A DNA stretch of 64,000 bases from Spirochaetota bacterium (GTDB taxonomy: Bacteria; Spirochaetota; GWE2-31-10; MWDO01). The stretch covers positions 1,163 through 65,162 of the forward strand of contig JAVBQL010000020.1 in assembly GCA_031549085.1 (NCBI GenBank). Reading direction: 5' to 3'. Positions within the stretch are counted from its first letter, which is position 1; every line of letters begins with the position of its first letter. This document shows positions 3,781 to 39,398 of this stretch, one piece after another. Below the pieces are notes generated by a model that had not been told where the DNA came from, ran no database searches, and saw nothing but the letters and a program-made list of their open reading frames with translations. The position numbers and the translations under genes are program-made.

Positions 3781-3949
3781 ATCATTCTCTAATTCATTAT
3801 CATTTTGTAAGCATTATTTTATATCTAAATAAAGAATATATCATAATATAATATTTTTTTGAAAATTCAAATGTATTATATTTAATTATCTTATAAAGAT
3901 ATTAAAAACTGAAATTTGTTTTGAAGGATTTTTTAGTCAGGTTGAAAAA

Positions 3950-4033
3950 GACCCATAAAAGCAAAGCCTAAATTATTTTTTTAAAAAAATTATTTTATAC
4001 TTTTATGAAGGGAAAAAAACGCCTTTATGGGTC
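3950..4033 (-). repeat. CCATAAA/TTTATGG long-range inverted repeat, copy a
   Basis: GACCCATAAAAGC (3950-62) and GCCTTTATGGGTC (4021-33). The single non-Watson-Crick position is a G.U only in a minus-strand transcript. Confidence 0.6.
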
Positions 4034-4496
4034 CTACTACTTTACAAATTATAGTCTATTGTTTAAATAAAGTCAAACATATTCTTATAAATATAGATTT
4101 ATATAAAAATTATTGTTTATAATTACCATTTTTAATAAAAAAGATTTTATAGACTATTTATAAATAAATGTATTTTATAAGTAAATAGTATAATAATCTT
4201 ACTTATAATTTATTATATATAAAATATTGACAATTATATGTTTTTAGCATAAAACAGATATCAATAGATAACTCTATAAAAGCATACCTATAATATTTTT
4301 TTAAAAAAGGTAATAAACACTCATTGCAATTATAGAATTATCTATTTTTTATTCAAGACAGTTCCTTTTTATGTATATATAGTTCTCTTTCTCTTCCGCT
4401 CTTTTTCCCTCTAACTTCACTATTTTATCAAATATGTGCCTACTACTCTCCTAAAGACATCAGATCTTTTTTTTTATTGCTATTTTTGAAATAGAT

Positions 4497-16731: not shown

Positions 16732-16849
16732 GACATTTTGTCTATTTTTTTACAAAAATTTATTTGGTAAAAAAGAAAATTTGTTTATTAATTGAACCCA
16801 ATTTTTAATTTGACAAGAAGTAATAAATGTATTAAAAATAATTAGAGCG

Positions 16850-16953
16850 GATGAGTCCATAAACAATTAAACAAGATATTCCAAACAGAAAAGATAAGGT
16901 CAGATTAATAAACTTTTAAGAAGGAATAAAAATTGGCAATTTATGGACTCATC
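16850..16953. repeat. CCATAAA/TTTATGG long-range inverted repeat, copy b
   Basis: A 14-bp perfect repeat, GATGAGTCCATAAA (16850-63) / TTTATGGACTCATC (16940-53), with a 76-nt spacer. Confidence 0.65.
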
Positions 16954-17019
16954 TGTTCTAACTATAAAAAATAATCCTACATCAACAAAATCGCACACAA
17001 ATCATCTATTTCATAAAAA

Positions 17020-17290
17020 TCAACAGAGTGGTGTTTTTGGGTCTCCTTTCAATTATAAATTATCTTTTACGGGGAAAATAGGCCCGTAAAAGTAAAGTCA
17101 CACGACTGAATACTCTGTTTAAGAGACCCAAAGGAAAGAATAAGCAGTCCATTACAATTACGGACCTGTCTAATTAGGCCATATAGACGCATGCACCTAA
17201 ATATAGAGCTGCCTTGTTTTGGGTCTCTTTTATAATCCAATCTGTGTGTACTAATTTCAGTCTTTCTGGAGTGTGAATCCTAAAAAAAAC
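17020..17290. other. GC-enriched structured non-coding island (unassigned RNA or element)
   Basis: No ORF. A perfect 10-bp hairpin, CTTTTACGGG/CCCGTAAAAG, lies at 17065-94. TTTGGGTCTC (17036-45) and GAGACCCAAA (17123-32) pair. A second TTTTGGGTCTC at 17217-27 forms a direct repeat with the first. Confidence 0.35.
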
Positions 17291-17591
17291 TAAAATTACT
17301 TAATTTATTAAATTATAAACCTATTCAATATAAAAAGCAACTTTTTTTATGAAAATCTATTTTCAATGTAAAATTACAATGAATAAATACAATACTAAAA
17401 GAATATTAATAGATCGTAGATAAAACAAAAATTATTGATACAAACTTATCTTTACCTTTCAAATCTAAAAATATTATTTTATAAAAATAGAGTTAAATAA
17501 AATAGTATCTTTTTACAAAAAATCACTAAAACGATTCTTGCCTATAAACCATATTATTACTCAATAGTCAAGAGATATAATTTAAACTATA

Positions 17592-21806: not shown

Positions 21807-21973
21807 CTTTAGACAACCCTTAATTATATAATTTAAAGTTAACTCTTTTTCAAAAAAAATAGTTCTAAAAACAAAAAAAACAAACAGTAATTTATGGACT
21901 GTTTTTATAACTATTCTCTTTAAAATGAACCTCACTATTTTATTAAATATGATTTGGCATTATATCATAAAAA

Positions 21974-22948: not shown

Positions 22949-23577
22949 ACTAATTCCTCTATAAATAAGGGTTTGTTAAAAAAAACATCTCTATATTTTC
23001 GTATATAATCACTTAAAATCTTTAATTATTTAAAACTTATTAACTAATAAGTTCTACTCTCTCTCTATGTTTATTAATGTTTTTTTAGAATTGTTTTCTT
23101 TTAAAAAAGTCATTTGTCTATAATAAAGAATATATGTTTATTTTGTTATAAAAACAATACTCTAAAAATAATATATATATTGTTGCTATTATTTGTAAAT
23201 AATTATTTTTTATATAAAAAAAGATTGATTTTTATATACAAAAATGATACTATTTTTTAAAAATAAAAGTAAAATAGGCTTGATTTAGTAGATAAAAATT
23301 ACTAAATTAAGTTTAAGAATAGTTATAAAACTTATTATTTATCTTAAATTGTCTAACCACCATACAGTTTAAGATGGGTGAGTTTTTTATATAGTTGGTC
23401 TTCATTATTATTCCTTATGAAGCATAATGAATTGAATCAATAATATTTTAATTAATAATGTTTGTTTTGTTAAATGATTTACTAAAATTAACTTTGGTTA
23501 GAATATTGTTGGTTTGAGATTATGCTTCTTATATTTTTATGGTATACATTTTTCTTAAATATAGAAAAATAAGACCA

Positions 23578-23676
23578 AATAAGCAAGCCCACAATTGGCA
23601 ATTGTTAAGTATGCTCTTTTGTATACAAATAGAGTATACTAACTTTTAAAATGTCCTATTGTGGGTTTGTTTATTT
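23578..23676 (+). repeat. ~100-nt extended double hairpin upstream of the DUF2271 gene
   Basis: The outer arms are AAATAAGCAAGCCCACAAT / ATTGTGGGTTTGTTTATTT: 19 bp, with both non-Watson-Crick positions being G.U on the plus strand. An inner imperfect palindrome is centred on GTATAC (23621-26). Confidence 0.55.
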
Positions 23677-23840: not shown

Positions 23841-24404
23841 ATGAAGAAAAAAATCTTAACTATTCTCATGACTCTAACTATTTTATTATCTGTAAATGCA
23901 ACAGACAATAATCAAAAGAGTGAAGGTGGTGGGGACTTAACTCTACAGTATGATCTCTATAGAATAAATAAGATGGGAAGCAATCAAATTGCTATCTGGG
24001 TAGAAGATACAAATGGAAACTATATCAACACGATATATGCAACAAGGTTTACAGCAAAAGGTGGCTATGCCAAGAGAGCAACATCACTTCCAACATGGGT
24101 TAAACAATCAAAAGTAGATAAGATGACAAAACAAGAGGTTGATACAATATCCAAAGCTACCAAAAAAGCTGGAAAAATTACAATAAACTGGAGCTGTGTT
24201 AACAACAAGGGAGAAAAACTTCCAAAGGGTGACTACATATTGAAAATAGAAGGAAATATATATCAAGATAATATGATTATGTATAGCGGACAATTTGAGG
24301 TTGGTGGGGATAATATAACTGTTGCCCTATCTCCAACCTACTCATCAGAGAGTGCAAAAGATTTTAAACTAATAGAAAATGTTACAATCAGTTATTCAAA
24401 ATAG
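23841..24404 (+). CDS. Secreted DUF2271-like protein
   Basis: Signal peptide. NQIAIWVEDTNGNYINTIYATRFTAKGGYAKRATSLPTWV resembles the DUF2271 core (qlAvWiED...). SD AAAGGAGG. Confidence 0.6.
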   Translation: MKKKILTILMTLTILLSVNATDNNQKSEGGGDLTLQYDLYRINKMGSNQIAIWVEDTNGNYINTIYATRFTAKGGYAKRATSLPTWVKQSKVDKMTKQEVDTISKATKKAGKITINWSCVNNKGEKLPKGDYILKIEGNIYQDNMIMYSGQFEVGGDNITVALSPTYSSESAKDFKLIENVTISYSK

Positions 24405-28056: not shown

Positions 28057-28261
28057 AATTTTAAAATCCTAATTTTCTTTAGTTATTCCATAGATATAAA
28101 AGAGCTCTTATTAAATATGATAAATTATAACATAATAGCCCTCTTTTCTCAAAGAAAAGGTTTTATAAAATCAAGAATAATATTATCTAAAAAAGATGAT
28201 TTGCTATTTATATGATAAATATATTTCAAAATATATCAAAATATGTAATCTAATGAAAGAT

Positions 28262-28358
28262 AAAAAGATCCATAAAACAAATCTGATCTAGCTTAAGCCT
28301 CTCTTTTGAGACAATGAGAAAAAGAGTGCCTAAAGCATAATATTTTATGGATCTTTTT
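28262..28358. repeat. CCATAAA/TTTATGG long-range inverted repeat, copy c
   Basis: A 16-bp perfect repeat, AAAAAGATCCATAAAA (28262-77) / TTTTATGGATCTTTTT (28343-58), with an inner CTCTTT/AAAGAG hairpin. Confidence 0.65.
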
Positions 28359-28519
28359 TAAGGCTCTATAAAATAAAAAGTGATATTATAAAAGCCTTAA
28401 AAAAGATAAAATTTCTTATGTATCTTATTTAAGTATATTTTAAACTACCAAATATTGAATTATGTTCTATAAAAATATTCTAAAGACTATTTTAGACAAT
28501 TGTAATGGTGATGCTCTAT

Positions 28520-28732: not shown

Positions 28733-29033
28733 CTCAAGTGCTCCTTGTATTATAAAAATAAAACAAGTCCATAAAAGCACAGTGGAACCCCTGTTGGAGC
28801 ATTACCAAATTATCCAGAAGCAATATAGAAACAAGGTAAGCTCCGTTAAAGATGCGCAGTTACGGACTTGTTTGTAATAAAAACACACTTAAGATTACAG
28901 GCATGTTTTGAATGCGAGTAAAGGTTTTTTTATCTGCTTCTGGAATAATAGTTATTAAAGCCTATTTAATGGATTCCACTCTGTTAAATATGACTTATTG
29001 ACCATTATACTCTATAATGAGTTTAATGGTCAA
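28733..29033 (-). promoter_or_regulatory. Promoter plus ~260-nt highly structured 5' leader of the small acidic-protein gene
   Basis: On the minus strand: TTGACC (29033-28), N18, TATAAT (29009-04). There are three long-range pairings: 28967-76 with 28787-96, CCAGAAGCA/TGCTTCTGG, and 28761-74 with 28860-73 (the last has a G.U pair only on the minus strand). Confidence 0.4.
28761..28873 (-). repeat. CCATAAA-type long-range inverted repeat, copy d
   Basis: AAACAAGTCCATAA (28761-74) / TTACGGACTTGTTT (28860-73). The A/C position becomes G.U on the minus strand. Confidence 0.6.
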
Positions 29034-38763: not shown

Positions 38764-38983
38764 CTTATAGCTTTTATTGCTATTTCAAGATTATACTGAT
38801 AAGTCTGTGATTTTTTATCTCTTTATGTTTATTCTTATACAAATATAGAGAGTGAATCTTTTTTATAATAAAAAAATTGTTGATTTTTCGATAAAATAGA
38901 TTTATATTTAACTATCTAAAAAAACAATTTAAGGAGAATACTTTACGATATTAAGTTCTCTTGTATCTTATATAAGGTTATTT

Positions 38984-39158
38984 AAACTAAAACAGATAGG
39001 CCCATAAATTTAAGTAGTTCTTTAGTTTTAGTTTCTAAAATGATAAGTTATTTTTATTCATAAGTGATTTAGTTTTGTACATTGTCATAAGTGATTCAAA
39101 AAAGATGTGCAAAACAATTGTTTTTTGCTTATTTTTTTGGGCCTTTCTGTTTTAGTTT
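38984..39158. repeat. 20-bp long-range inverted repeat with a GGCCCATAAA core, copy e
   Basis: AAACTAAAACAGATAGGCCC (38984-39003) / GGGCCTTTCTGTTTTAGTTT (39139-58), one mismatch. The interior carries TCATAAGTGATT twice. Confidence 0.6.
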
Positions 39159-39398
39159 TAAAGAATAATCTTTTAACCTCTTTTATCTATCTGTTTTTTT
39201 TGCAATTCTAATTGTCTTATAGTCATCCAATTCTTTTATTAACCTCTTTCACATTATAAATAGTTAGAAACACATATTTTAAATAAATAATATGTGTTAT
39301 AAACTGATTATCTTAAAAAAAAGTGTTACCACCCTTATTGATACTATGAAGCAACAATAAGTTGGTAACACTATATTCTTAAATACTATCTCTCTAAA

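Follow-up and report, generated by a model that had tools for sequence, protein, structure and literature searches.

What are the paired arms that recur in the long intergenic regions of this spirochaete contig? The genome is an 88%-complete metagenome-assembled genome of an uncultured spirochaete (2.68 Mb, 33 contigs, 32% G+C; G000 below). The window, that is, the whole stretch of 64,000 nt analysed here (C11:1163-65162), lies on a gene-poor contig with many intergenic gaps of 0.5-1.2 kb, and the gene products of this contig include WG-repeat, MORN-variant, NHL, chemoreceptor, and giant surface proteins. An earlier note had described five intergenic elements in the window, designated here as a to e, as one family of long-range inverted repeats, in which arms with conserved inner ends and covarying outer ends enclose unrelated sequence.

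Arm pairs and their frequency in the genome

Direct reading of the sequence confirmed all five arm pairs (Table 1). The heptamer CCATAAA was not enriched within the window (21 observed versus 19 expected), and a generic motif or protein-binding half-site was rejected because CC[AG]TAAAAG was neither enriched nor preferentially intergenic. Pairs of CC[AG]TAA and TTA[CT]GG lying 30-300 nt apart, with arms extending at least 3 nt outward, were found only six times in the 2.68 Mb of the genome, and four of these six fall inside the 64-kb window, a count that rules out a chance origin of the arm pairs.

When a to e were aligned, the arms formed a 15-bp helix in which 91% of the cells pair and 6 of the 15 pairs vary on both sides, with a covariation score of 0.43 as compared with 0.23 in shuffles. 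Since these arms had been chosen as inverted repeats, their pairing and double changes are true by construction and do not prove an RNA on their own. Covariation among five copies cannot tell RNA from DNA palindromes either, and the RNA argument consequently leans on the large family described below. The covariation on which the earlier note relied was present in the arms and in this large family, but the five copies alone were insufficient to argue for RNA.

A covariance model built from a to e alone (R1) found only these five copies in the genome, and none in 20 genomes of the order or 400 genomes of the phylum; three marginal matches in one further genome (G003) were plain terminators. Neither the pair count nor this genome scan showed a MITE-like, genome-wide spread of the exact arm element, in agreement with the earlier note. 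A DNA search among relatives returned no homologues of the window elements, and a scan of a genome collection for the arms of a and c gave no match. Other assemblies, sought by exact protein match, were represented by one contig of 995 nt that ends before copy a; the neighbouring EamA gene is contained in one public run, SRR23967707. Metagenome pattern matches for b (GAGTCCATAAA...TTTATGGACTC, JGI) were rejected as unrelated, being long foldbacks with terminal repeats of 30-76 nt in DNA of approximately 40% G+C. The lack of a known Rfam family also held: no match to Rfam 15 was obtained in the window at the gathering threshold, and at E≤5 only three chance microRNA/snoRNA matches appeared, all away from the elements.

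Several ordinary sources of such arms were rejected. Split terminators were excluded by the occurrence of just one unsplit CCATAA...TTATGG hairpin in the whole genome, and small ORFs starting from the AUG within UUUAUGG were excluded because their frames were short or without a Shine-Dalgarno sequence at a usable distance. CRISPR repeats were excluded because the arrays of this genome have a different repeat. These two arrays, at approximately 79.5 kb of C24 and 25.5 kb of C31 in G000, comprise at least 12 and at least 21 repeat units, respectively; their repeats end in ...ACCTATGAGGTATTGAAAC and are unrelated to both hairpin families of the genome. A supposed half-site of the arms at 21885-21900 turned out to belong to a short terminator of the ordinary kind, ACAGU-CCAUAAAUU-ACUGU followed by U8, of which it forms only the loop.

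A three-helix domain of about 95 nt

A mismatch-tolerant arm search showed that GCA(A/T)GCCCA(C/T)AAAAGC recurs within extended conserved blocks that are present in multiple copies at other sites of the genome. Alignment and nhmmer analysis resolved three groups, namely Z (approximately 280 nt, 13-15 copies), Z2 (approximately 350 nt, 7 copies), and many stand-alone units, all of which have a domain of approximately 95 nt in common. The arm motif, GRYCC-AUAAAAGC / GCUUUUAU-GGRYC, is helix P1 of this three-helix domain, the consensus of which is 5'-AaGCCCgcA (P1) - aUUGuAuUG - GgCUgg (P2) - cuCuuU (P3) - loop - P3' - P2' - GugUgAACuuUaCuUUU - gcGGGCuUg (P1')-3'. The contrast between conserved inner and differing outer arm ends was indeed seen, and the inner part corresponds to the inner P1 and the first junction.

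The helices are nested in our alignment of the domain (A3), with P1 in columns 6-16/93-103, P2 in 30-34/70-74, and P3 in 38-43/62-67. This structure pairs in 90% of the cells, 15 of its 22 pairs are double-changed, and none of 500 shuffles matched it; when the partners were slid by 1-3 columns as a control, just 39-48% of the cells paired. Both junctions, aUUGuAuUG and GugUgAACuuUaCuUUU, are conserved and form large internal loops. P1 itself was 98.5% paired, with 24 G.U cells and 3 non-pairs. As first extracted, in the opposite orientation, the closing helix contained many A.C cells and almost no G.U, indicating that the functional strand is the reverse complement of that orientation. The family thus displays strand-specific pairing, in which a G.U on the sense strand reads as A.C on the other strand. 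Judged from these alignments, this is a real, uncatalogued family of structured RNA with three predicted helices on one strand. When Z2 and other repeat loci were searched against Rfam, the only matches were to generic hairpins of microRNA precursors, well below the thresholds.

The sequences around the domain point in the same direction on the same strand. TTGATT-N16-TATAAT is conserved upstream on the sense strand of ten Z copies, with 63-69 nt between its end and the domain, and the Z copies that were read carry a U-run of 4-6 after P1, so that promoter, domain, and U-run together make up a unit of approximately 165 nt. Among all copies, a promoter of at least 10/12 was found in 11 of 48, as compared with 7 of 144 control windows, and a clear U-run was present in only about half. 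The U-run after P1' suggests that P1 may also act as the stem of a factor-independent terminator. Classical terminators have far shorter loops than the putative "loop" here, which is the structured interior of 58-135 nt, and a consensus scan (loops of 3-8 nt) does not call these elements.

A second covariance model (R2) was built from 18 copies of the domain. Searching with R2 yielded 47 copies in this genome and a single good copy outside it, at C136:2545-2637 of G018 (52.9 bits), a genus in another family of the same order, the proteins of which are approximately 30% identical to those of this genome. That copy has a periplasmic-binding-protein gene on one side and, on the other, a sensor-kinase-like ORF whose start codon follows after 27 nt; its P1 is followed by U6. 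R2 detected no copy in the family to which G018 belongs, nor in 400 further genomes of the phylum. The 47 copies showed no orientation preference relative to the flanking genes and no preferred distance from them, and many lie 200-900 nt from any ORF. Tandem pairs on the same strand are typical of the family, with six pairs among the genome-wide copies. Eight near-identical stand-alone copies are flanked by ordinary housekeeping genes and by no mobile-element gene.

A second hairpin family was also observed, with 43 intergenic copies elsewhere in the genome (for example, C20:223533-223638, C24:36841-36946, and C29:2280-2367) and none on the contig of the window. It has a conserved centre of 36-50 nt, GTCGAT4-7...A4-7TCTTTG, and variable, near-perfectly complementary arms of at most 36 nt ending in TATAA/TTATA. 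Its orientation matched that of the flanking genes in 12 of 12 "++" contexts, and it has no Rfam match.

Copies in the window

R2 was run over the entire window with cmsearch without filters, f being the only window member in its training set (Table 1). Copies f, h, c, d, and a2 were thereby shown, by score and alignment to the model, to belong to the family of the 95-nt domain. The best-preserved of them is f, which retains P1, P2, P3, and the junctions and had been listed earlier only as a related motif (17084-17165); h and a2 had been overlooked. Copies a and b are inferred to be further-decayed members, although both were selected for P1-like arms and score weakly, so that their membership is partly circular. 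Element e is probably not a member and is better described as a separate long hairpin. The window would then hold seven copies, namely three same-strand tandem pairs (a2/a, f/b, and d/c) and h.

Table 1 Intergenic elements of the window, with arm pairing, R2 match, and folding on each strand.
Element	Position	Strand	Arms	Arm pairing	R2 score and E value	Fold, kcal/mol (+ / -)	G.U (+ / -)	Remarks
a	3943-4041	-	3950-3962 / 4021-4033	12/13	12.4 bits; 0.59 window-wide, 0.005 in own 500-nt region	-16.6 / -23.5	0 / 4	
a2	4264-4346	-			20.2 bits; 0.005 window-wide			High composition bias (9.6)
b	16838-16965 (R2 alignment 16847-16957, -)	ambiguous	16838-16863 / 16940-16965	23/26	9.3 bits (-), 4.2; 8.7 bits (+)	-36.9 / -35.5 (16838-16965)	2 / 3	
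f	17074-17174	-			68.6 bits; 3e-16 (in training set)			nhmmer Z2 model, E 0.003
h	23578-23674	+			41.0 bits; 1e-8 (outside training set)	-42.1 / -29.6	4 / 0	Full-length
c	28260-28361	-	28262-28277 / 28343-28358	16/16	29.5 bits; 1.4e-5	-25.5 / -32.9	0 / 3	Full-length, diverged; P1, P2, and P3
d	28759-28876	-	28761-28774 / 28860-28873	13/14	25.4 bits; 1.8e-4		0 / 7	P1 and both junctions kept; interior is a different hairpin
e	38981-39161	+	38981-39014 / 39128-39161	85%	Arms not aligned	-58.0 / -37.8	9 / 2	Hairpin of 181 nt; core CCCAUAAA/UUUUUGGG

These results divide the earlier claim of a single family of five elements. The unit represented by f, h, c, d, and a2 is real, and c and d match R2; the elements a to e do not stand alone as a family, and e fails the model. 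Arms around unrelated sequence are accordingly not a family of their own, but rather copies, decayed to varying degrees, of the family of approximately 47 copies, which has conserved P2, P3, and junctions. The interiors of a to e are unique in the genome; they had been described as unrelated AT-rich sequence, but those of c and d, like that of h, contain nested helices that match R2. The structural reading of the earlier note was thus largely right, and the unit had been mis-delimited.

The strand on which the elements would function is indicated by their wobble pairs. The hint that mismatches become G.U on the minus strand was borne out for a, c, and d, in which G.U pairs are gained on the minus strand only (Table 1). 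Every element but b has a clearly more stable fold on one of its strands, and this holds against shuffles as well. Regional GC skew around the elements is uniformly negative, and since the favoured strand varies by element under this uniform skew, composition is not the cause. For a, c, d, h, and f, R2 assigned the strand that the G.U counts, made independently and beforehand, had favoured.

Copy h lies 165 nt upstream of a plus-strand gene (23841-24404) and is preceded by a promoter-like TTGAGA-18-TATGGT at 23514-23543. Copy d lies in the leader, of approximately 260 nt, of a gene for an acidic protein, with its 3' strand ending 28 nt before the ATG (28732-28730), and a promoter, TTGACC-18-TATAAT, is found at 29033-29004; on the favoured strand, its stem is followed by the U-rich tail UUUUAUUUUUAU. 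Copy c is located behind this gene for the acidic protein of 70 aa and approximately 110 nt upstream of the promoter of an MCP gene. Its P1 is followed by UUUUUAUCUUUC, and the U-rich tail on its favoured strand reads U5AUCUUUC. A perfect 15-bp hairpin, 28351-28365 / 28393-28407 (ATCTTTTTTAAGGCT / AGCCTTAAAAAAGAT), was observed on the minus strand; it overlaps 8 nt of the 5' strand of c, and the two structures are therefore mutually exclusive.

Copy a2 has decayed toward AT and retains P1 (GAUAAUUCUAUA / UAUAGAGUUAUC) together with the junctions AAUUGCAAUG and UGCUUUU. Copy a keeps only P1 and the 3' junction CUUUGCUUUUAUGGGUC around an AU-rich interior, followed on the favoured strand by U5. 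On the same strand, TTGACT-17-TATAAT (11/12) at 4076-4048 ends approximately 12 nt before the stem; sites of this quality are expected 0.85 times in 10.6 kb of shuffled intergenic sequence (six regions together, both strands). Family likeness in b is limited to P1 and the AAUUG junction within its arm pair of 26 nt. TTGACA-18-AAAAAT (10/12) on the plus strand at 16810-16839 ends just before this stem, and such sites occur at the chance rate.

The motif that a and b share before the 3' arm proved to be real; it is not a feature of the family, and there is one other exact 16-nt match, at C28:16699. This match, CTTTTATGAAGGGAAA, is common to the interior of a and that of an element at C28:16658-16840 of G000, where its place with respect to the arms is reversed, at the other end of the interior. 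The latter element consists of perfect 25-bp arms around 133 nt, immediately behind a gene, and two R2-type copies are located just downstream of it (C28:17066-17159 and 17367-17462).

Two further observations concern sequences next to the elements. Three segments of the window, at 17036-17045, 17121-17132, and 17218-17229, hold GAGACCCAAA and the two stretches with which it could pair, TTTGGGTCTC on its upstream side and TTTGGGTCTCTT at a distance of 85 nt downstream. Pairing with TTTGGGTCTCTT would enclose the 5' part of f, and TTTTATAAT comes after it on the plus strand. Beyond e, the minus strand at 39309-39385 carries GUGUUACCA, 31 nt, and UGGUAACAC, followed by U8. This is likely the true terminator of the gene for a surface protein of 1960 aa; its long loop contains a nested hairpin, as in other terminators here.

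Explanations and comparison with known systems

Taken together, these findings suggest that the arms are the P1 helices of a multicopy family of small-RNA genes, specific to this lineage, whose paralogues range from complete to decayed, an interpretation that we hold with somewhat more confidence than doubt. The best-kept subfamily, Z, would be an RNA gene with its own promoter and a closing helix that doubles as the terminator. P1 and the adjoining junction would be the last part of the unit to decay, and their outlasting the interior would explain why the inner ends are conserved, why the outer arms covary, and why the interiors seem unrelated. The copies are presumably transcribed, and P1 may end or attenuate transcripts where it is located. 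Copy d would act 28 nt ahead of the acidic-protein start codon, within the leader of that gene, and c behind the gene, ahead of the chemoreceptor promoter; copy a would be a transcript of approximately 100 nt from its own promoter.

The positions of d and of the G018 copy invite a cis-acting interpretation, in which the domain is a riboswitch-like attenuator, P1 and the U-run form an "off" terminator set by a ligand, a protein, or an RNA, and d, h, a, and c regulate the co-oriented genes downstream. In both copies P1 is followed by a U-run, and a ribosome-binding site with its start codon comes 27-28 nt downstream in the same orientation; the junctions form large conserved internal loops. A competing structure is conceivable as well, since the GCCC 5' strand can pair with a nearby GGGC in 83% of the cells and the 15-bp hairpin beside c overlaps its 5' strand by 8 nt. 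However, covariation of the GCCC/GGGC hairpin was not above that of shuffles, and it was rejected as a switch. The indifference of the 47 copies to gene orientation and distance, the remoteness of many of them from ORFs, and the diversity of the downstream genes, which have no function in common, also speak against cis-regulation, as does the self-contained promoter-to-terminator unit of Z. We consider this explanation unlikely for the family.

A selfish origin, as intergenic foldback repeats like MITE, REP/BIME, or ERIC, would mean that the elements propagate at the DNA level, perhaps in the form of folded single strands, with the hairpin needed for transposition and the RNA fold incidental. 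Such an origin would fit the presence of many copies in one genome and near absence elsewhere, both orientations relative to genes, every stage of decay, and swollen intergenic regions alongside the other hairpin repeat families of the genome; strand-specific tolerance of G.T would equally suit an element handled as folded single-stranded DNA. A classical MITE is out, since the interiors of a to e are unique in the genome and the flanking sequence, read directly, has no direct repeats or target-site duplications. The outer termini are not conserved and the inner arm ends are, which upholds the earlier proposal that selection acts on single-stranded structure and not on transposon ends. Furthermore, the 88%-complete genome gave no match to the Y1 transposase family (RAYT/IS200; PF01797), for which the control genomes were positive, and no serine recombinase was found in the genome. 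The conserved sigma-70 promoter lies on the wobble-favoured strand, which points to a transcribed gene, and a diverged, intact copy has been retained in a distant genus. A selfish origin thus appears rather improbable.

Invertons of the Mpi/Tsr type show a shared core within differing inverted repeats, in long intergenic regions near surface and sensory genes. If a single site-specific recombinase inverted small DNA switches at these arms, exchange would keep them complementary. The arms do fit the shared-core pattern beside surface and sensory genes, and the 16-nt motif sits at one end of the interior in a and at the other in the C28 element. This reading is very improbable, however, because no recombinase gene is present on the contig and just four tyrosine recombinases occur elsewhere in the genome, the interiors of 58-85 nt have no promoter better than 9/12, the conserved, strand-specific part of the RNA domain makes up the interior in c, h, and f, and G.U asymmetry is not expected of a double-stranded recombination site. 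Integron attC sites were also rejected, as the arms have no GTTRRRY or RYYYAAC boxes and the contig no integrase.

To return to the small-RNA gene family, its closest counterparts are sibling small RNAs with a 3' terminator hairpin, such as Qrr1-5 of Vibrio and LhrC1-5 of Listeria. Like these, it consists of paralogous intergenic RNA genes of 100-170 nt running from promoter to terminator, with conserved structure, drifting sequence, and tandem copies on the same strand. Unlike these, it has approximately 47 copies, far above the known sibling families, with many of them decayed; no seed or target was identified, and the part of the terminator falls to the long-range helix that closes the domain, in place of a separate 3' hairpin.

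SPRITE, BOX, and RUP of Streptococcus pneumoniae, ERIC, Correia/CREE, and REP/BIME resemble the family in their high copy number within one lineage, intergenic location in either orientation, hairpin with a U-run, all states of decay, and the presence of other repeat families alongside. In contrast to those repeats, the family has no terminal inverted repeats with target-site duplications and no RAYT/Y1 transposase, and it has a three-helix domain with junction loops, its own promoter, and a single copy in a distant genus. Riboswitch and attenuator leaders share with d and the G018 copy a closing helix and U-run directly upstream of the ribosome-binding site, and with the family conserved internal loops and a possible competing hairpin; in contrast to such leaders, most copies lie outside leaders, with no common class of downstream gene and no Rfam family.

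A more far-reaching proposal, which we regard as rather doubtful, is that the domain is a new regulatory RNA, either an attenuator controlled by a ligand or protein or a trans-acting small RNA with a junction "pocket". It would be ancestral to the order; one genus would have kept it once, ahead of a sensor-kinase gene, and in the present organism it would have been amplified to approximately 47 promoter-bearing copies, of which those on the gene-poor contig of the window would control surface and sensory genes (MCP, EamA, and the acidic protein).

A decaying RNA gene family can mimic a separate family of long-range inverted repeats, because its closing helix outlives the interior. What lies behind the arms is an RNA structure supported by covariation, with approximately 48 examples, absent from Rfam, for which a model of strand, promoter, and terminator has been defined. 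If selfish, it would add a promoter-carrying, terminator-like repeat to the spirochaete catalogue; if the RNA is regulatory, the family would be among the largest paralogous small-RNA families in a bacterium.
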